Positions 4,033 to 11,020 of a DNA stretch of 64,000 nt are shown here, one piece after another. How positions within the stretch are numbered: position 1 is the stretch's first letter; every line of letters begins with the position of its first letter. The DNA is from Vulcanimicrobiota bacterium (lineage in GTDB: Bacteria; Vulcanimicrobiota; Xenobia; Xenobiales; JADMJV01). Made by a program: the position numbers and the translations under genes. The notes under the pieces were generated by a model. The model saw nothing but the letters and a program-made list of their open reading frames with translations, searched no databases and had not been told where the DNA came from. The stretch covers positions 2,086,210-2,150,209 of the forward strand of contig JBFWNU010000001.1 in NCBI GenBank assembly GCA_050250895.1, read 5' to 3'.

Positions 4033-4578
4033 ATGGAGCTGCGAGCCGGTCCCGATTTGCGGCTGGCGCCCGTGCGCCTTCACGACGCAGACGAGATGTT
4101 CGAGCTGGTCGAGCGCTATCGCGAGAGCCTGGAACCCTGGTTGTGGTGGGTCGAGACCACCCGTTCGGTGGAAGACACCAAGTTCTTCATCGCCTCGCTC
4201 AAGAAGGTGGGCATTTACGAACAAGGCCTGGTTTTCGCCATTCGCCATCGTCGCGAGTTTGCCGGGACGGTCGGGTTTCACAACGGCAATGGTGCCCATA
4301 TGCGGGCCGAGATCGGCTATTGGCTGGCCCCGCCCTTCGAGGGTCGCGGAGTGATGACCAAAAGCTGTCTGGCCTGTCTGGAGTATGCTTTCGGCAAGGT
4401 TGGCGTCCATCGCATCGAATTGCGCACCCGGGCCGAGAATGAACGCAGCGTGGCCATGGCCATCCGTCTGGGTTTCTCGTTTGAAGGCGTCGAGCGAGAA
4501 GGGCTGCGCCGAGGCAAAGAGTTTCACGATCACAATGTCTACAGCCTGCTCAAACCCGAGTGGGAGGCGCGCGCGTGA
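4033..4578 (+). CDS. GNAT family N-acetyltransferase (RimJ/RimL-like)
   Basis: An ATG lies 1 nt after the lpd stop. GNAT-type C-terminal region (HRIELRTRAENERSVAMAIRLGFSFEG). The longer ORF 4003..4578 overlaps lpd, so I chose the internal ATG at 4033. Confidence 0.78.
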   Translation: MELRAGPDLRLAPVRLHDADEMFELVERYRESLEPWLWWVETTRSVEDTKFFIASLKKVGIYEQGLVFAIRHRREFAGTVGFHNGNGAHMRAEIGYWLAPPFEGRGVMTKSCLACLEYAFGKVGVHRIELRTRAENERSVAMAIRLGFSFEGVEREGLRRGKEFHDHNVYSLLKPEWEARA

Positions 4579-5189
4579 GACGGGTCTGGCTACTGCTGTG
4601 GCTGCTGCTGCCGCTGGCGGTGACGGCTGCCGGCGAACCCGGTTGCGATTGTGATCCGGCCCTGATTCATCTGTGCCGCTGCAAGGTGTTGATCACCACC
4701 CCGGTGGCTCGCAAGCAGATGGCCTACATCCAGCGGGTGCTGGCTCGTCAGTTCGATGGCCGGCTCAGCCTCGGCCACCCCATCGAAGTCGAGGTCAGCC
4801 CGGCCGACCAGCTCAAGACAGTGGTGGGTGAGCATCTGCAGGGGCTCTATGACGACGGCAAGGTCTGGGTCAGCGACAGCTTGATCCGGGAGGAGGCGAT
4901 GATGGTGCTGGCCCACGAGTACGGTCACGCCTGGCATTTCGAACACCACCCCGACCCCGACCGCATCTCGGATCAGCTGGCCGAGGGATTCGCCGAATGG
5001 GTAGCCTTTCACGCTCTGGCGCCAGCCGGATTCACCGACTTCTGCGACCGTATCAAGCGCAGTCCTGACCCCATTTACGGCGGAGGGTTCCGCTTCTATT
5101 ACCGAGTCGAGCAGCAATTTGGCTCGGAGGCGGTCTTTAACATCGCCCAGACCTGGCTGGACATGGAAGGGCACAAGGTCGACGGCTAG
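4560..5189 (+). CDS. Secreted HExxH protein, putative peptidase MA-like metallopeptidase
   Basis: GTG start overlapping the GNAT stop. Hydrophobic signal-like N-terminus (VWLLLWLLLPLAVTAAG) and an HEYGH zinc-binding-like motif. Confidence 0.5.
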   Translation: MGGARVRRVWLLLWLLLPLAVTAAGEPGCDCDPALIHLCRCKVLITTPVARKQMAYIQRVLARQFDGRLSLGHPIEVEVSPADQLKTVVGEHLQGLYDDGKVWVSDSLIREEAMMVLAHEYGHAWHFEHHPDPDRISDQLAEGFAEWVAFHALAPAGFTDFCDRIKRSPDPIYGGGFRFYYRVEQQFGSEAVFNIAQTWLDMEGHKVDG

Positions 5190-5497
5190 GACTGAAGGAT
5201 GTCGCGCAGTCTACGCTTGATATCATCGAGTTCACCCTGGACGCGATCGATCGAGAACATCAGTTCACGCACCAGATGTTCGTCTACCTGGGCCGGGTCG
5301 TCGCGAAAGAAATACGACTCGGGTTTCTTTAGTACAACGCAAATGCGCTCCATGCTCTTGCGGCTGGGGCGATGGGCGCCGTACTCCCAACGTTGGACGG
5401 TATGCTCAGAGTTGTGGCCCAGCAGTTTGGCTAACTCGATTTGAGTCAGCCCGGCTTCTAACCGAGCCTTCTTCAGATTCTCTGAGAAGTCTGCCAT
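5186..5497 (-). CDS. XRE-family helix-turn-helix transcriptional regulator
   Basis: N-terminal HTH_XRE signature (LKKARLEAGLTQIELAKLLGHNSEHTVQRWEYG). It is convergent with the previous gene; the two stop codons overlap in a CTAG tetranucleotide. Confidence 0.8.
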   Translation of the reverse strand: MADFSENLKKARLEAGLTQIELAKLLGHNSEHTVQRWEYGAHRPSRKSMERICVVLKKPESYFFRDDPAQVDEHLVRELMFSIDRVQGELDDIKRRLRDILQS

Positions 5498-5581
5498 GCT
5501 TTCGATAATCTTGAGTCCTTCTCGGCAAAAACTTGAATTCCCCCTGAGAGGGCAAGAGGTTGGGCTGCCGAAGGGCGCGGG

Positions 5582-7060
5582 GTGAACGAACTTCCCGACC
5601 TGGTTCTGCCTGACGACGACGACCTGCTCGACGCCCTCAAGGCAATACCCGCCGCCCTCTCGGGCTATGGCTATAATGAGGTGAACATCCGCGAGTTGCT
5701 GGGGGTGGGCGACCCCGGACAGTTGCTCTCGGACAACATCCCCGGTTATCTGTGGCGATGCCAGAAGGCGAATTCGGTCCTGGCCCTTTTGGTGGCCTTC
5801 TTCCTGTTACACCAGCCTGTGCGCCGAGCTTCGCTGGAAGAGTATCTGGGGGACGAAGAGGTGGCAGCCCTGATTGCGGCGGGCGTGGTAGTGGATGATG
5901 GCGAGGCCGTGCGCTCCACCGTGGACCTCTACCCGATCTTTGGGCGCTACGTGTTCACCGACCCGGTGCTGGCTCGCCAACAGTCCGAGGGCCACGTTTA
6001 CGAATTAGGAGCCGACAGCTACGCCATCGCCAGGGTCACTCCCCGCAAGCGGGTGCTGCGAACCCTCGACCTGTGTACCGGTTCGGGGGTGCACGCCATC
6101 CTGGCCGGAGGCCACTCGGAAGAAGTGGTGGGCGTCGACATCAATCCTCGGGCCCTGGCTTACTCGCGTCTCAACGCCCACATGAACGGGGTGGCCGAGA
6201 GTTGCACTTTCGTGGAGGGAGATCTCTTCGCTCCCGTTCCCCAGGCCAGGTACGACCTTATCACCGTCAATCCGCCCTTCGTGCCCAGTCCTGACCGCAC
6301 GGTGGCTATCCATCGTAGTCCGGGCGAGACGGGCGAAGAGGTCTCGTCGCGCCTGGTGGCGGCCCTGCCCGAATACCTGGCCGTCGGTGGTCTTTTTTCG
6401 ATGGTGCTCGATTATCCGGTGATGAGGGACAGCACCTATCTCGAGCGATTGGGCGAATGGCTCGGAGAGTCTCACGGTTGGGGTATCGCCATTCTTGATT
6501 TCGGAGCCGTGCCCAACGAGAAGTATATCCTTGGTCACCTCGATTTCAACGTGGGTTGGAGCAATTTTCAAGAGACTTTTCAGCAGTATCTCGAATCCTA
6601 CGAGCGACTGGGCATCACCTCGGTGGGGTTCGCCAACGTCTTCATCAAGCGTCTGACCGACAACACCCCCACCTGGGGCCACCGGTTCTCGACCCGGGTG
6701 CCCAGTGTATTTCTGTGCGACCGGGTCGAAGAGTGGCTCGACGGGCTCGAAGACTATGGCAATCCTGATTGGGATCCCGACTGGGAGTTTTGGAAGCCCA
6801 GACTCAGCCCCCACTACAGCACGCTCTGGCGCGATTCGAAGAAAAAGCGCGGTCTGCTCGAATCGAGCGACCTCAATTGGTGCCAGCCGTTGGCCCTGGA
6901 TCGCCTTCAGGCCATGCTGGCGGCCCGGCTCGACGGCAAGAAGACTGGTGAAGAGCTGGTGCAGGGATGGGCCAAAAGCCGCCGGCTCGACCTCGACGCG
7001 GCTCGCCGCGAGGTGGTCGAGATTCTGAGATTTCTAGGATGTCAAGGCGCGCTCAACTGA
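5582..7060 (+). CDS. Class I SAM-dependent methyltransferase (HemK/small-MTase-like NPPF motif) fused to a C-terminal PqqD-like peptide-binding (RRE-like) domain
   Basis: Motif I DLCTGSGVHAIL and motif IV ITVNPPFVP. The last roughly 70 aa (LDRLQAMLAARLDGKKTGEELVQGW...ARREVVEILRFLGCQGAL) resemble the PqqD/RRE fold consensus. The PqqD call is an inference. Confidence 0.72.
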   Translation: MNELPDLVLPDDDDLLDALKAIPAALSGYGYNEVNIRELLGVGDPGQLLSDNIPGYLWRCQKANSVLALLVAFFLLHQPVRRASLEEYLGDEEVAALIAAGVVVDDGEAVRSTVDLYPIFGRYVFTDPVLARQQSEGHVYELGADSYAIARVTPRKRVLRTLDLCTGSGVHAILAGGHSEEVVGVDINPRALAYSRLNAHMNGVAESCTFVEGDLFAPVPQARYDLITVNPPFVPSPDRTVAIHRSPGETGEEVSSRLVAALPEYLAVGGLFSMVLDYPVMRDSTYLERLGEWLGESHGWGIAILDFGAVPNEKYILGHLDFNVGWSNFQETFQQYLESYERLGITSVGFANVFIKRLTDNTPTWGHRFSTRVPSVFLCDRVEEWLDGLEDYGNPDWDPDWEFWKPRLSPHYSTLWRDSKKKRGLLESSDLNWCQPLALDRLQAMLAARLDGKKTGEELVQGWAKSRRLDLDAARREVVEILRFLGCQGALN

Positions 7061-7392
7061 CATTGTGCTGGCTGCTGGGCGCCATGGCCCTGGCCTGGTG
7101 GGTGGGGCGGCCGACGCCGTGTGGCTGCGAGCAGGACGAATTCTGCGGAACGACCCCCGCTCCCGTGATGGCCTGCTGTCACCACGACGGCTCGCTGTGC
7201 GCCGTGCATGGCTGCCAGCCGGTGGTGGAATGCGCCGACGCGCCCGCCCCACCCCAGCTTGCCTATGTTCTTCCCGCCGACTCCGAGCAGGCACCTCGGG
7301 CCTGGACTCGAGGAGCCTTCCCCTCGGCCTCGACCCGGCTGGGTCAGGTCTACACAACCCCTCCGACGCCCCCTCCTGAGAGCTGGCTCTAG
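7036..7392 (+). CDS. Small Cys-rich secreted protein with Tat-like N-terminus (MSRRAQLTL...), nine Cys in about 45 residues
   Basis: The ATG overlaps the last 25 nt of the upstream MTase. Signal-like n-region with RR followed by a hydrophobic stretch, then CGCEQDEFCG...ACCHHDGSLCAVHGCQPVVEC. The Pro-rich tail argues against a spurious GC-frame ORF only weakly. Confidence 0.45.
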   Translation, partial: RMSRRAQLTLCWLLGAMALAWWVGRPTPCGCEQDEFCGTTPAPVMACCHHDGSLCAVHGCQPVVECADAPAPPQLAYVLPADSEQAPRAWTRGAFPSASTRLGQVYTTPPTPPPESWL

Positions 7393-7428
7393 CCAGCCTA
7401 ACGACCCAAATCATATCAGGAGGTAACT

Positions 7429-8415
7429 ATGCTTTCGAGATGGCTCTTGCCATGCTTGTTCTTTATTTTCATGGGGACGGCTCTGGCCGACGACGAACCG
7501 GTCAGCCGCCCCGACAGCCACGCGCCCATCGGAGTGATGGGCGACCACCGCCACCGCGAGGGGGAGTGGATGGTGTCCTACCGTTACATGACCATGCGGA
7601 TGAACGGCAGCCTCAACGGCTCGTCGTCCATCTCGAATCGTGACGTTCTCAGAGGCTATATGGTCACGCCCACCAGGATGACCATGGACATGCACATGCT
7701 GGGCATGATGACCGCTCCCAGCGACGACGTGACCGTCATGGTCATGCTGCCCTTCGTGCACAAGTCGATGACCCACCTGGCCCGTAACGGCCGCACCTTC
7801 ACCACCAGCGCCAACGGCGTCGGCGACATGCAAGTGAGTGCGCTGGTCGGCCTGTGGGATGAAGAGGATCAGCACCTGCACTTCAAGGCCGGGCTGAGTC
7901 TACCCACCGGAACCATCTCGGCGCGTGACGACACGCCAGCCGGGCCCAACCAGATCTTGCCCTATCCCATGCAGTTGGGCTCGGGCACCTTTGATCTGGT
8001 GCCAGGCGTCACTTATACCGGCCAGAGCGACGATTGGTCCTGGGGCGCTCAGCTTCAGGGTACGGTGCGGCTGGGCGAGAACCATCGTGGCTACAAGCTC
8101 GGTAACGTGGGCGAGTTGTCGCTATGGGGGGCTCATCGTTGGAACGACAACGTCAGCACGTCGCTGCGCCTGTACGGAACCACCTGGGGTGACATCTCGG
8201 GGCGTGACTCGGCCCTCAATCCCCGCATGATTCCCACCGCCGACCCCAATCTGCGGGCCGGCAGCCGACTGGACGCGCTGGTGGGTGTGAACGTGCTCAC
8301 CGGCGGCGGCCATCGCCTGAGTGTCGAGGCCGGGCTGCCGGTGGCTCAATCGCTGGACGGCCCCCAGCTCAAGACCGATTATACGGTCACGGCCGGTTGG
8401 CAGTTCAGCTTCTAA
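7429..8415 (+). CDS. Outer-membrane beta-barrel protein with Met/His-rich N-terminal segment (putative metal, possibly copper, associated porin; MetA-pathway/CopB-like)
   Basis: Good RBS (AGGAGG) upstream. Signal peptide ending ALA. Met/His-rich run (MTMDMHMLGMMTAP, HRHREGEWM). Alternating-hydrophobic strands and a C-terminal ...GWQFSF ending in Phe, which is the classical OMP signature. Confidence 0.7.
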   Translation: MLSRWLLPCLFFIFMGTALADDEPVSRPDSHAPIGVMGDHRHREGEWMVSYRYMTMRMNGSLNGSSSISNRDVLRGYMVTPTRMTMDMHMLGMMTAPSDDVTVMVMLPFVHKSMTHLARNGRTFTTSANGVGDMQVSALVGLWDEEDQHLHFKAGLSLPTGTISARDDTPAGPNQILPYPMQLGSGTFDLVPGVTYTGQSDDWSWGAQLQGTVRLGENHRGYKLGNVGELSLWGAHRWNDNVSTSLRLYGTTWGDISGRDSALNPRMIPTADPNLRAGSRLDALVGVNVLTGGGHRLSVEAGLPVAQSLDGPQLKTDYTVTAGWQFSF

Positions 8416-8460
8416 GGGCCTGTAGGGCCGCCCGGGCCGTCCAACGAATCTTCTGGGGCA

Positions 8461-9051
8461 ATGGACCCCGGTCTTTACTACCCCGAAGAGATGGGACGGC
8501 CCGAGGTGGCCCGCATTCGCGCGCACTATTCCACCCTCGACACGCGGGCCTTGCACGACGCCAGCCGCGACCGCTTCACCCAGACCGGCGGCAGCTTCTA
8601 TCACGGCGACACCTGGGCCCCGACCTTCTATCGGTTATTGAGTTGGGCCGGCTTGAACTCGGACGATGTCTTCTATGACCTGGGTTGCGGCTGCGGTGAG
8701 CCGACCCTGACAGCTTCTTTGTTCACGCCGCAGGCCCAGGGACTGGACCTTTTGCCCGGACTGGTTCGCATCGCCGAGGCCTCGGCTCGTAACCTGGAAT
8801 TGGCGGCCAGCTTTGCGGTGGGAGATATGCTGGGGGCCGATTTGAGTTCAGCCACCTTGATCTATGTGGCGGCCACAACCTTCGATCGCTGGCATCGTCA
8901 GCAGCTGGTGCGTCGCCTCAAGCCGCTCACTCAGGCCCGTTTTTTGGTGCAAGGTCCTCCGCTGGAAGGTCTGCCGGTGGTGGCGGTGGCCAAAGAGTGG
9001 GTCTTCTGGGGTGAGCCCACTCCGTGTCGTTTTGCTCTTCAGACCTGCTGA
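8461..9051 (+). CDS. Small class I SAM-dependent methyltransferase
   Basis: Motif I-like DLGCGCGEPTL and a Rossmann-like alternation of hydrophobic strands. Confidence 0.65.
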   Translation: MDPGLYYPEEMGRPEVARIRAHYSTLDTRALHDASRDRFTQTGGSFYHGDTWAPTFYRLLSWAGLNSDDVFYDLGCGCGEPTLTASLFTPQAQGLDLLPGLVRIAEASARNLELAASFAVGDMLGADLSSATLIYVAATTFDRWHRQQLVRRLKPLTQARFLVQGPPLEGLPVVAVAKEWVFWGEPTPCRFALQTC

Positions 9052-9113
9052 AGTTTCAAAGATCTTTCAGGCAGCTGGGTCATACTGTTGAAAACAAAGA
9101 CCAGGAGTAACCA

Positions 9114-9332
9114 ATGCAAGTCCGTCATCTCGCCACCTCCCACGCCGCTACCCACCAGCAGCCCGCCAAGCAAGCCGAAGGCGAACCCCGTGACCCTCAG
9201 GACCGGGTGGAACTCGGCACCCACCGCGACGAAGATTTTTGGGCCCAGCAGCTGCGCGAACTCAAAGAGCGCTATCCCAACGGCATGACCGCTCACGACC
9301 AGCGCGTTTTCCTGACACAAATGTTCGACTAG
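9114..9332 (+). CDS. Small hypothetical protein (72 aa)
   Basis: Strong RBS (AGGAG 9 nt upstream of the ATG). No recognisable motif. Confidence 0.4.
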   Translation: MQVRHLATSHAATHQQPAKQAEGEPRDPQDRVELGTHRDEDFWAQQLRELKERYPNGMTAHDQRVFLTQMFD

Positions 9333-9401
9333 CGCGGGTCTGGACCGCAGGAGACACTCCCGCTCCCAAAGAAGCCGAGCATTGAAGGAGTGTGCCTGCA
9401 A

Positions 9402-9863
9402 ATGCCCATCCAACCACTGCCTGAGGGAGCCCAGCCCCTCATCCCCTATCTGATTGTCAACAAAGCAGCCGCGGCCATCGAGTTTTATAAACTCGTCTTC
9501 GCCGCCGACGAGGTGTTGCGCATGGCCGGGCCCGACGGCAAGTCGATCATGCACGCCGAGCTACGCATCGCCGGCTGCCTGATCTATCTGGCCGACGAGA
9601 ATCCCGAGCAGGGCCATCTGTCTCCCACCACCGTGGGCACGACCACCGTCGGTCTGAGCCTTTACTGCCTGGATGCCGACAAGGTCTTCAACCGGGCCCT
9701 GGACCACGGGGCCGAAGTGGTTCGCCCCATGATGGACGCCTTTTGGGGCGACCGGTACGGCGTGGTGGTCGATCCTTTCGGCCATCAATGGAGCTTGATG
9801 ACCCGCAAAGAGCACTTGAGCCCCGAGGAGATGGTCCAGCGCGGCAATCAGTCGATGCGCTAG
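9402..9863 (+). CDS. VOC (glyoxalase/bleomycin-resistance/PhnB-like) family protein
   Basis: RBS GAAGGAG upstream. PhnB-like pattern (LIPYLIV...AIEFYK...MHAELRIAG...DPFGHQWSL). I chose the internal Met at 9402 rather than 9390. Confidence 0.78.
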   Translation: MPIQPLPEGAQPLIPYLIVNKAAAAIEFYKLVFAADEVLRMAGPDGKSIMHAELRIAGCLIYLADENPEQGHLSPTTVGTTTVGLSLYCLDADKVFNRALDHGAEVVRPMMDAFWGDRYGVVVDPFGHQWSLMTRKEHLSPEEMVQRGNQSMR

Positions 9864-9954
9864 CTGTCAACCCGCCTCGATGAGGCTAACTCCTTGCAGA
9901 AACTCGACGTCTATGCTCTCTGGTTCGACGATGCCGCCCTGGGACCCCTAAGGG

Positions 9955-10164
9955 GTGTCGGTCGTTGCTGCCGGCGACCTGCCGCGAATGGAGGGTCGCC
10001 GTGATACCCTGGAGGACGCCACTCTCATCGTCGAGGTCCTCTCGCCCTCCACTCTGGACTATGACCTCGGCCGCATCTCTCGAGGAGTCGAAGGGCTGGC
10101 GCCTCAGGCCGCCAGGGGCAGGCTGACCGCCGCCGGGTTGATGTCTGGTGCGACCGGTTGTTGA
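9955..10164 (+). pseudogene. Remnant of a Uma2-family (DUF820) endonuclease C-terminus
   Basis: The peptide ...ATLIVEVLSPSTLDYDLGRIS... matches the conserved Uma2 (D/E)VLSPST..D core. The rest of the family is absent, the frame decays afterwards, and it sits at the edge of a low-GC islet. Confidence 0.3.
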
Positions 10165-10386
10165 ACGGGCCGGGGGCGGGCGGCGTTGCGCAAAGTGACG
10201 TACCCGTTATAGATGTCGGCCCACCAGGCCAGAAGAATCGTGGTTAGCATTGTTGTGTTCCCTCCCTGCTCCGCTATCCTAGGTCATCCGCCGAGCAGGT
10301 TCTGTGACAAAGGTCAAACTCTTGTCTGTGCCGGGGACTTCGCAACTGCGCTTTTCAGGTAAGCACAAAAGTAGTATAGTGAAGCC

Positions 10387-10614
10387 ATGGCGAAAGAGAT
10401 CAAGATAAGGCGCTCTGGGGGCTCGTTGAGTGCAACGTTGCCCAAAGAATACGTCGAGCATTTCCATCTGGCCGAAGGTGACCGGGTTTTTGTCGTGAAG
10501 ACTGACCAGGGAATCCTGATCACACCTTACGACCCCGATTTCGAGAAGGCTATGAAAGTCTATAAGCGGGGTGCCAGGAAGTATCGTGATGCGCTAAACG
10601 AACTGGCCAAGTAA
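10387..10614 (+). CDS. AbrB/MazE/SpoVT-family antitoxin
   Basis: Swapped-hairpin signature IKIRRSGGSLSATLPKEYVEHFHLAEGDRVFV. 75 aa. Directly upstream of the Doc toxin. Confidence 0.8.
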   Translation: MAKEIKIRRSGGSLSATLPKEYVEHFHLAEGDRVFVVKTDQGILITPYDPDFEKAMKVYKRGARKYRDALNELAK

Positions 10615-10615
10615 C

Positions 10616-11020
10616 TTGAGCCAGTCAGAGCCCACCTGGCTCAACCGTCAATTTCTCGACGCTGCCCATCAAGACCAACTTCAACAGCATGGTGGCTTGT
10701 CAGGAATACGTGATGAGAACGCTCTCGAGTCAGCTTTGGCGAGACCCCGTAACCGCTGGAGCTACAAACCGGACACTAGCCTGTTAGAGTTGGCGGCTTG
10801 CTACTGCTTCGGCCTGGCCACTTCTCACGGATACTCTGATGGGAATAAGCGGATAGCCTTCGTTGCCATGTACACCTTTTTAGGAATCAACGACCTCGAG
10901 ATCACAGCCAGTCAGGTCGAGGTCGTTCGAATGATCCTGGCTGTTGCTGGGGGGAAACTCGACGAAGAGAGCATCGTTCAGTGGCTTGAGAGGTTTACCG
11001 AACCCTACTTCGAGGAGTAG
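10616..11020 (+). CDS. doc: Doc (death-on-curing) Fic-family toxin
   Basis: Doc motif HGYSDGNKR (HxFx[DN]GNKR). TTG start 1 nt after the antitoxin stop. Local GC is clearly lower than the flanks. Confidence 0.83.
   Translation: MSQSEPTWLNRQFLDAAHQDQLQQHGGLSGIRDENALESALARPRNRWSYKPDTSLLELAACYCFGLATSHGYSDGNKRIAFVAMYTFLGINDLEITASQVEVVRMILAVAGGKLDEESIVQWLERFTEPYFEE

Follow-up and report, generated by a model that had tools for sequence, protein, structure and literature searches.

The window analysed here is a 64,000-nucleotide stretch of DNA from a Vulcanimicrobiota bacterium (GCA_050250895.1, contig JBFWNU010000001.1, positions 2,086,210 to 2,150,209 of the forward strand), and our subject within it is a gene for a small Cys-rich protein lying between a methyltransferase with a C-terminal RRE/PqqD-like domain and an outer-membrane β-barrel. 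A divergent XRE-family regulator lies on one side of these genes and a second methyltransferase on the other (Table 1). All the genes named at this locus by an earlier note (regulator, methyltransferase, small open reading frame (ORF), barrel and second methyltransferase) are present. The small ORF stands as a gene with nine cysteines but its measures need correction: the ATG lies at 7039 rather than 7036, which gives a protein of 117 rather than 118 residues and an overlap with the methyltransferase of 22 rather than 25 nt. By analogy with known arrest leaders, we favour, with somewhat better than even confidence, a reading in which the small protein would act as a CutF-like translational metal switch for the Met/His-rich barrel, beside a functionally separate RRE-bearing methyltransferase.

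The Cys-rich putative leader and the Met/His-rich barrel

The small ORF is a real gene and not an artefact of GC-rich reading frames, as the earlier note had considered: the annotation of the source genome includes it (P0001), and relatives have it too. A word-indexed search of 5.8 billion sequences returned two proteins and HMMER, run exhaustively on 1.84 billion representatives, only the protein itself; the relatives comprise that of the near-identical genome L001 (79–82% identity) and two recognized via synteny, L002:9481-9867 at 36% and L093:803-1198 at 26%. There is no Pfam or NCBIfam match, and none to DUF2946 even at E 10. The nine cysteines occupy positions 10, 28, 30, 36, 46, 47, 54, 59 and 65, and across the four homologues the invariant elements are E34-F35-C36-G37, C46, C47, C54, C59 and the terminal PP.PPP. 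The N-terminus has a positively charged start and a 16-residue hydrophobic helix with no clear AxA cleavage site, so that it may be a signal anchor; this putative export helix is kept in L002 and L093. The Arg-Arg pair formerly read as Tat-like is not conserved, being SRR in the window and L001, SKP in L002 and lacking an RR in L093. Compared with its close relative, the small gene has a dN/dS of 0.53 against 0.02–0.10 for its neighbours, with the changes concentrated in residues 74–107 while the Cys-rich half and the proline tail are conserved. The distance from Cys65 to Pro113 is 47 residues. Judged from the alignment, this pattern of a retained Cys half and PPP joined by a free linker fits a regulatory leader.

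The barrel downstream matches PF13557 at 42.3 bits (cut-off 22) over residues 102–259 only, and has a signal peptide and the C-terminus ...GWQFSF. Of the families put forward earlier, the MetA-pathway family (PF13557) was indeed matched but CopB/PcoB was not: up to an E of 0.1 Pfam returned only PF13557, and NCBIfam returned nothing. No solved structure was matched by the barrel profile among the PDB sequences. The protein contains the motifs HAPIGVMGDHxH..GEWM.SYRY, MTMDMHMLGMM (M.M..HM.G.M in the family) and YPMQLGSG, and the alignment of its homologues shows these His/Met-rich blocks to be invariant. The homologues number more than 5000 at 53–74% identity, from cyanobacteria, gammaproteobacteria, Latescibacteria and others, and many carry His- or Cys-rich N-terminal extensions. 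One homologue (P0205, 469 residues, from a Joint Genome Institute (JGI) metagenome) is fused to NosL (PF05573), the copper chaperone of nitrous-oxide reductase assembly, which is the most direct hint of copper for the barrel family. The barrel resembles the COG4313/PF13557 channels, such as Pput2725 of Pseudomonas putida (PMC4493636), in size, signal peptide and C-terminal aromatic residue. However, unlike the characterized COG4313 members, its subfamily has the invariant His/Met motifs, metal-type leaders and no hydrocarbon-degradation context. In the literature we found neither a link between PF13557/COG4313 members and copper nor a characterized member of the Met/His-rich subfamily; the text-form supplements of PMC9973294 contain no PF13557. 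The metal or copper flavour that the earlier note ascribed to the small protein and the barrel is borne out, and by analogy we infer that the barrel may be a Met/His-lined channel handling the metal sensed by the leader, with copper as the likeliest candidate.

The neighbours of the barrel in other loci are mixed, including an RND pump, AhpC-TSA, a PilS-like kinase and, on Ruegeria plasmids, Ccm/DsbD genes. On four such plasmids (L173, NZ_CP081108.1, and L174, NZ_CP045386.1, among them) the barrel gene, annotated as 'transporter' and located at 6818-7924 in L173/L174, is divergent to an extra cytochrome c maturation set (CcmF, DsbE, CcmH-like and CcmI genes) and a gene for a DsbD-domain protein, and the annotation shows no leader gene. 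In L002 the barrel is split into two overlapping ORFs, 9911-10330 (139 residues) and 10327-10830 (167 residues), which points to a frameshift pseudogene or an assembly error, and the leader is intact.

Leaders of this kind recur ahead of the barrel. As a leader we counted a same-strand ORF of 60–175 residues upstream of the barrel if it combined an uncharged hydrophobic helix within residues 1–45, a Cx1-5C motif and, among its last 15 residues, PP or PxP. Such an ORF precedes the barrel in 16 of 68 metagenomic loci, as against two of 1470 other ORFs of the same size, and several more were recognized by eye. They fall into at least four sequence types that look unrelated to one another: that of the window (...EFCG..CC..PP.PPP), ...CFCYxCC...NLPIRSPP, ...RAPP (three of which match Pfam DUF2946 with a best E of 1e-4) and ...PCxCGC...DP[IV]P[IV]. 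In all of them 44–51 residues separate the last motif Cys from the final Pro. The recurrent leaders would mark the barrel as a regulated metal channel, with copper as the probable metal. Among CutF-like leaders, those rich in Cys go with copper genes, and those with His only go with Ni/Co genes (PMC9973294). One leader, in L131 (224-811, + strand, upstream of the barrel), has 14 cysteines (SCCSNGTCRC...SCC...CGSPGC...TCCG...CCTCG) and ends in ...EDPVPWGALA; behind the barrel in L131, at the place that the second methyltransferase has in the window, lies a gene whose resemblance to class I methyltransferases is weak and generic.

The end of the leader gene and the start of the barrel gene are predicted to be joined by an 8-bp mRNA stem, in which CCUCCUGA pairs with UCAGGAGG and sequesters the Shine–Dalgarno sequence of the barrel. 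The 73-nt fold has a predicted energy of -22.4 kcal/mol (z -2.86), a value equalled by two of 200 shuffles, and the Shine–Dalgarno sequence has a pairing probability of about 1.0 in contexts of 106–250 nt, the highest among the ten AGGAGG sites in the window. The homologous stem in L001 extends to 10 bp (z -4.5, a value reached by none of 200 shuffles); changes on both sides have added one A-U pair. L093, L097 and L136 likewise have a predicted stem over the Shine–Dalgarno sequence, which involves the arrest-motif codons or bases immediately downstream (z -2.6 to -3.0). Among synonymous codons, the leader tail tends to use those that can pair with the Shine–Dalgarno sequence. In a synonymous-recoding test, 2.4% of the recodings of the window's leader pair as well (z -2.7), the z in L001 is -5.3, and the Stouffer Z over 17 loci, not all of them independent, is -5.0; loci with a long gap show no codon signal. 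CCT supplies three of the five Pro codons of PPTPPP, as compared to 12% of the Pro codons in the window.

Table 1. Coordinates of the genes and predicted features at the locus (positions within the window)
Feature	Position	Strand	Remarks
XRE-family helix-turn-helix (HTH) regulator, 103 residues	5186-5497	-	Pfam HTH_3 E 2.4e-10; divergent from methyltransferase
Sigma-70-like promoter match	5482-5509	+	weak, consensus only; divergent intergenic region upstream of methyltransferase
Methyltransferase, 492 residues	5582-7060	+	DUF7059 and MTS domains, NPPF motif
Predicted RRE/PqqD-like winged-helix domain of methyltransferase	6794-7057	+	C-terminal, residues ~405-492
Cys-rich small gene (putative leader), 117 residues	7039-7392	+	identical to database protein P0001
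Hydrophobic export helix or signal anchor, leader residues ~7-22	7057-7104	+	read from sequence; preceded by SRR (residues 2-4)
Cys/His cluster C28, C30, C36, C46, C47, H48, H49, C54, H57, C59, C65	7120-7233	+	putative metal-sensing segment
PPTPPP codons, residues 108-113	7360-7377	+	putative ribosome-arrest motif; four residues before stop
Predicted 5' stem arm CCUCCUGA	7372-7379	+	codons P112-P113-E114
Small inner hairpin GCUGGC/GCCAGC	7382-7397	+	spans leader stop codon; not conserved in L001
Predicted 3' stem arm UCAGGAGG	7416-7423	+	contains barrel Shine–Dalgarno AGGAGG (7418-7423), 5 nt before ATG 7429
Outer-membrane β-barrel, 328 residues	7429-8415	+	PF13557 E 1.2e-10
Second methyltransferase, 196 residues	8461-9051	+	DOT1/aKMT-like; weak Pfam match

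The RRE-bearing methyltransferase as a neighbouring unit

The 492-residue methyltransferase matches the Pfam MTS domain at E 2.1e-12, and in its NPPF motif N230-P231-P232 are invariant and F233 nearly so. An AlphaFold model built from 61 homologues (predicted local distance difference test 95) shows a helical N-domain (DUF7059), a Rossmann domain with the NPPF motif, an extra β-sheet domain and a C-terminal RRE-like domain. Sequence-profile searches recover GenN (1.7e-30) and AerE (4e-21), and the modelled core is that of a GenN/AerE-type N-methyltransferase, which would act in the cytoplasm on amides or amines; the enzyme misses the curated (equivalog) score of the HemK/PrmC N5-glutamine methyltransferases, though the NPPY/NPPF motif on a class I Rossmann fold is present. 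In the predicted structure residues ~405–492 form three strands followed by three helices, a winged helix that two independent fold searches also recover. When the family profile was compared with the PDB sequences, PqqD was the top match for this tail, with an E of only 0.03, and Pfam gave no match to PF05402 (PqqD) at E up to 10. As Pfam and NCBIfam are blind to PqqD in the tail, the RRE question was decided by structure. Thus, the PqqD-like tail that the earlier note had read into the sequence holds at the level of the predicted fold, an RRE/PqqD fold, while the PF05402 profile check proposed for it came back negative.

This RRE-like domain presumably docks a peptide or protein substrate, which is probably encoded elsewhere. 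The architecture differs from those of the known relatives: AerE and PoyE are proteusin Asn N-γ-methyltransferases and GenN is the gentamicin 3''-N-methyltransferase, and while AerE and GenN lack an RRE, the window's enzyme adds ~90 residues of RRE fold and sits in no recognizable biosynthetic cluster. In comparison with PqqD and the lasso-peptide B1 proteins (TfuB1, TbiB1), its RRE is only 15–19% identical and lies below the Pfam thresholds. An AerE/GenN-type N-methyltransferase with a fused RRE domain is a new enzyme architecture and a lead for peptide or protein amide-methylation chemistry.

The methyltransferase family comprises at least 237 database clusters and at least 515 confirmed loci among species-representative genomes. 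Several genomes have multiple paralogues: the metagenome-assembled genome (MAG) CAYRFU has at least seven loci and BWSM_10 has four, and the genome of the window contains a second copy (P0079). The expansion of the RRE-bearing methyltransferases reaches at least seven paralogues in some genomes of Vulcanimicrobiota. The neighbourhood differs for each of the copies in CAYRFU (GCA_964423525.1; L007, L010, L014, L018, L019 and L038) and in BWSM_10 (L009, L011, L013 and L027). CAYRFU (L007, L010) is titled 'uncultured Burkholderiales bacterium', yet its XRE regulator, methyltransferase, leader and barrel are closest to those of the Vulcanimicrobiota window and its methyltransferases are expanded in like manner, and the label is probably wrong. 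Across the family the neighbours include genes for pyruvate dehydrogenase, a histidine phosphatase, a glycosyltransferase, peptidase C11 and phospholipid synthesis, among others. A set of members (L046, L047, L057, L069, L071, L073, L075, L077, L080-L083, L085 and L086) are ORFs of ~1180–1325 residues ending near position 7500 of their loci, in which the methyltransferase core is fused to an N-terminal part of ~750 residues; they come from proteobacterial, planctomycete, cyanobacterial and Pelosinus genomes. The family members P0057 and P0058 are named 'carbamoyltransferase' by JGI, and the carbamoyltransferases NovN and GdmN are also found among the RRE-like structural matches, which hints at enzymes producing N-methyl-carbamoyl groups.

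The four genes from the XRE regulator to the barrel are not one conserved module; the methyltransferase and the leader–barrel pair are more probably separate units lying side by side. Among 87 methyltransferase loci, the regulator, small gene and barrel adjoin the methyltransferase only in L001 and in L002/L007, where the methyltransferase is 68% identical. In none of the 80 metagenomic barrel loci does a member of the methyltransferase family, the RRE domain or the XRE regulator occur, and the neighbours around more than 500 methyltransferase relatives are others, so that the single system of four genes proposed in the earlier note is not supported. Around 15 RRE-bearing paralogues, greedy gene sets revealed no recurrent small ORF, RiPP-type enzyme (RiPP, ribosomally synthesized and post-translationally modified peptide) or candidate precursor; these gene sets were used in place of a first clustering of raw six-frame ORFs around the methyltransferase loci, which was dominated by shadow ORFs of high-GC DNA. 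Contigs that carry homologues of both the methyltransferase and the barrel (P0023/P0130, P0077/P0125, P0047/P0144 and P0043/P0145) were considered as a sign of linkage and rejected, the genes not being adjacent, which speaks for a common lineage only. In the window the small gene overlaps the methyltransferase stop (7058-7060), and in L002 a gap of 5 nt separates the two. This overlap and the lack of a convincing Shine–Dalgarno sequence of its own point to translational coupling of the leader to the methyltransferase, and to co-transcription from the XRE-side promoter, as the probable arrangement. The putative promoter there matches the consensus at nine of 12 hexamer positions, and the stretch directly upstream of the small gene showed no match of this quality.

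The proposed metal switch and its alternatives

Under the reading that we favour, the leader would be made as a co-translationally exported nascent chain, whose Cys/His cluster would reach the periplasmic side while the C-terminal PPTPPP is still in the ribosome. Binding of a metal, most likely Cu, by the cluster would lengthen the pause at PPP in the peptidyl-transferase centre. The paused ribosome would cover CCUCCUGA, otherwise paired with UCAGGAGG, and thereby free the Shine–Dalgarno sequence of the barrel gene 36 nt downstream, so that the barrel would be translated only during leader stalling. With the polarity of CutF, metal excess would turn the barrel on; we chose this polarity because the window, like CutF, combines PPP with a short gap (36 nt) and a predicted stem over the Shine–Dalgarno sequence.

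The principle of a leader acting on the next gene was described between 2022 and 2025 (PMC9426467, PMC9973294, 10.1101/2025.02.05.636593), and the statement of the earlier note that this is not a described system is accurate for the gene combination but not for that principle. CutF of Rhodobacter capsulatus has a Sec signal, a CxxxC motif and the C-terminus ...GPPPRL; copper bound by the nascent chain during export holds the ribosome longer at PPP, and the stall is proposed to melt a stem-loop over the Shine–Dalgarno sequence of the next gene (PMC9973294; 10.1101/2025.02.05.636593). The 118-residue CutF of the cutFOG operon, which is exported, and the window's leader, which probably is, are both small proteins with a Cys motif in the exported part and PPP near the end (...GPPPRL and ...PPTPPPESWL), separated by ~45 residues; in both, a short gap follows and the Shine–Dalgarno sequence of the next gene lies behind an mRNA stem, which in the window is a predicted one. 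By the rule of Ozturk et al., a CutF-like protein has fewer than 150 residues, a signal peptide and PP among its last 15 residues, and is followed on the same strand by a gene no more than 1000 nt away (PMC9973294; 10.1101/2022.11.11.516240); against this, the window's leader has 117 residues, PPTPPP at residues 108–113, a putative Sec signal or signal anchor as read by eye and the barrel 36 nt after its stop. In contrast to CutF, it has no detectable sequence homology or DUF2946 match and carries CxC/CC/Cx4C/Cx5C instead of CxxxC, its target is an outer-membrane barrel and not a multicopper oxidase, the arrest-motif codons themselves form the predicted 5' stem arm, and it is a second gene overlapping a methyltransferase, in the phylum Vulcanimicrobiota.

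DUF2946 (PF11162) proteins are copper-responsive regulatory upstream ORFs (PMC9426467). CruR (Bp2923) of Bordetella pertussis, a member of this family, resembles the window's leader in being encoded upstream of an outer-membrane target and in having a Cys motif and, at a fixed spacing from it, a Pro arrest motif near the C-terminus (PMC9426467); its export signal has a putative counterpart in the window, the Cys–Pro spacing being ~45 residues in both CruR and CutF (PMC9426467, PMC9973294). CruR has its arrest motif, RAPP, three residues from the end, a 162-nt intergenic region, Rho-dependent termination and a TonB-dependent transporter as target, and copper relieves its arrest. Compared with DUF2946 proteins, the window's leader lacks CXXC and RAPP and instead has an analogous Cx4C/Cx5C and TPPP 44–47 residues apart; and while DUF2946 genes head putative copper-homeostasis operons, it follows and overlaps a methyltransferase, with no separate promoter detected. 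SecM, MifM and VemP are likewise exported nascent chains whose arrest opens a stem over a downstream Shine–Dalgarno sequence (PMC9973294), as proposed here, but they sense export activity rather than metal and their arrest sequences differ. The leader principle and RRE domains are both already known and neither half of the locus is categorically new; new are a leader family outside DUF2946, its presence in a new phylum and putative arrest codons doubling as the anti-Shine–Dalgarno arm.

Several observations weigh against the proposed switch. The window-type leader and the RSPP/RAPP-type leaders give a probability of 1% in a profile–profile comparison (hhalign), and its Cys pattern of CxC, CC, Cx4C and Cx5C differs from both CXXC and CxxxC; as it shows no sequence homology to DUF2946 or the other leader types, the match is architectural only and we do not claim homology. 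A recognizable leader is present at only about a quarter of the barrel loci. Unlike the published CruR and CutF genes, the small gene is not the first in its operon, and it has no convincing Shine–Dalgarno sequence of its own. The choice of copper draws on Cys/Met/His chemistry and analogy alone. With regard to the stem, the one predicted in L002 is no better than shuffles, and Pro codons are inherently complementary to GGAGG, so some of the pairing comes for free. When the footprint of the stalled ribosome (7360-7392) was masked in silico, the Shine–Dalgarno sequence still paired with upstream CCUCC-like stretches of the Pro-rich leader, which may be reserve anti-Shine–Dalgarno segments or noise, and we therefore take the stem as a prediction and not a demonstration. 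Finally, the order and orientation of regulator, methyltransferase, leader and barrel are kept between genomes whose methyltransferases are 68% identical, which keeps a functional tie to the methyltransferase conceivable.

If the leader mechanism is right, its polarity could still be that of CruR, a possibility that we hold tentatively at about one chance in four: the barrel would then take up copper and be made when copper is scarce, and binding of copper would relieve the arrest and shut the barrel off. CruR controls a TonB-dependent copper importer in this manner (PMC9426467), some barrel leaders are RAPP-type and DUF2946-like, and the NosL fusion and the wide occurrence in cyanobacteria fit a supply role; however, the anatomy in the window is of the CutF type, with PPP, a 36-nt gap and a Shine–Dalgarno stem, as opposed to the 162-nt unstructured region and Rho-dependent termination of CruR (PMC9973294), and RND efflux pumps adjoin the barrel in some loci. 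A little more doubtful is that the small protein, with no regulatory role, is stably anchored in the membrane or present in the periplasm, as a metal chaperone or metallothionein-like protein that gives Cu(I) to the barrel or receives it from there. A sensor would need fewer than the nine Cys and three His present, and some leaderless barrel homologues bear similar Cys/His-rich segments on their own N-terminus (e.g., DCPTEEVACEGGCGHAH and CQCPDGQVCEDGAC), which suggests a metal-binding part working with the channel; to this may be added the one homologue fused to the copper chaperone NosL. A chaperone role would leave the free linker of fixed length, the invariant PP.PPP and the synonymous-codon bias unexplained, and CutF, which is built in the same way, undergoes degradation once exported and has an effect in cis only (PMC9973294). 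Of the two readings in the earlier note, that of a periplasmic chaperone plus channel under XRE control is the nearer, but the anatomy matches that of a CutF/CruR arrest leader rather than of a stable chaperone. The chaperone and leader roles are not mutually exclusive and could coexist.

The other earlier reading, in which the methyltransferase modifies the Cys-rich protein, amounts to a RiPP-like or protein-modification cassette: the RRE would bind the small protein, the enzyme would N-methylate it before or during export, and the barrel would export or use the product. A genuine RRE-type fold is fused to an AerE-like amide N-methyltransferase, the 22-nt gene overlap and the 5-nt gap in L002 suggest translational coupling, and the gene order is kept where the methyltransferase is only 68% identical. 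Yet the adjacency, which is all that speaks for methylation of the Cys-rich protein, is limited to one small clade with two independent genomes. More than 500 methyltransferase relatives, more than 15 of them with an RRE, have no such neighbour or recurrent small ORF, and the leader–barrel pair recurs in many loci devoid of the methyltransferase or RRE. RRE-like winged helices are also appended to non-RiPP enzymes, namely the protein-lysine methyltransferases PKMT1/2 and Rv2067c and the carbamoyltransferases NovN and GdmN; AerE acts independently of a leader peptide and has no RRE (PMC9060474); and a co-translationally exported chain would be a poor substrate for a cytoplasmic enzyme. We consider such a cassette very unlikely, and in view of the independent distribution of the methyltransferase and the leader–barrel pair, methylation of the leader by the neighbouring enzyme is rated just as low or slightly lower. 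Comparably improbable is a functional role of the gene overlap, in which the RRE would capture the N-terminal region of a nascent or non-exported leader and N-methylation (of a Gln/Asn amide or an amine), or mere occupancy by the enzyme, would tune the arrest switch. If true, this would amount to three-layer control of an outer-membrane metal channel through XRE-dependent transcription, enzyme–leader interaction and metal-dependent stalling, and it would be the first case of an RRE guiding the modification of an arrest peptide with a regulatory role. We give equally little credence to the 492-residue enzyme being a nucleic-acid N6-adenine methyltransferase under a C-protein-like XRE regulator, as in an orphan restriction-modification or MADS-like defence system. 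The NPPF motif is common to N6-adenine methylases, and in PADLOC the XRE protein matches 'control protein' and RmrA models and the methyltransferase domain matches mad2 at E 3e-22; but this last match is limited to the generic Rossmann domain (residues 135–305) and was rejected as a sign of a defence system, a nuclease or other defence partner is absent nearby, and the enzyme family is multi-copy and housekeeping-like.

The metal-switch reading with CutF polarity, if correct, would point to a function for a barrel subfamily of more than 5000 homologues at over 50% identity that is annotated only as 'transporter' or 'phenol MetA pathway'. It would extend the principle of metal-sensing arrest leaders to a new phylum, a new class of target and a leader family invisible to DUF2946 profiles, and the design would be economical, since the arrest motif's own proline codons would serve as the anti-Shine–Dalgarno arm. 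Should the leader model fail, the ordinary picture of a hypothetical small protein beside a porin-like gene would be left. What is gained is a testable metal-channel hypothesis for an anonymous barrel family, the mechanism of which we infer throughout.

Flanking genes

The XRE regulator is strongly conserved with respect to L001 (dN/dS 0.02). The matches of the second methyltransferase among PDB sequences are DOT1-like and archaeal protein-lysine methyltransferases, with E values of 1.9e-9 to 5e-6; it is found in L001 and missing from L002, and is a passenger outside the conserved unit. Its candidacy as a recurrent partner of the barrel was rejected, the gene in L131 being a weak generic class I match and that in L101 an unrelated methyltransferase. 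A scan of positions 4500-9600 against Rfam gave no match.

Upstream, the + strand encodes at 4560-5189 a 209-residue protein with a signal-peptide-like start, a CDCD...C.C segment and a HEYGHAWH (HExxH) motif, which shows sub-threshold matches to several metallopeptidase families and is kept in L001 and one other Vulcanimicrobiota locus (L029). Further downstream on the same strand, a MazE-type antitoxin and a Fic/Doc toxin form a pair at 10387-10614 and 10616-11020, between glyoxalase and ABC-F genes. A 69-residue ORF at 9955-10164 (+) takes the place of a full 193-residue Uma2-family gene in L001 and may be a remnant of it.

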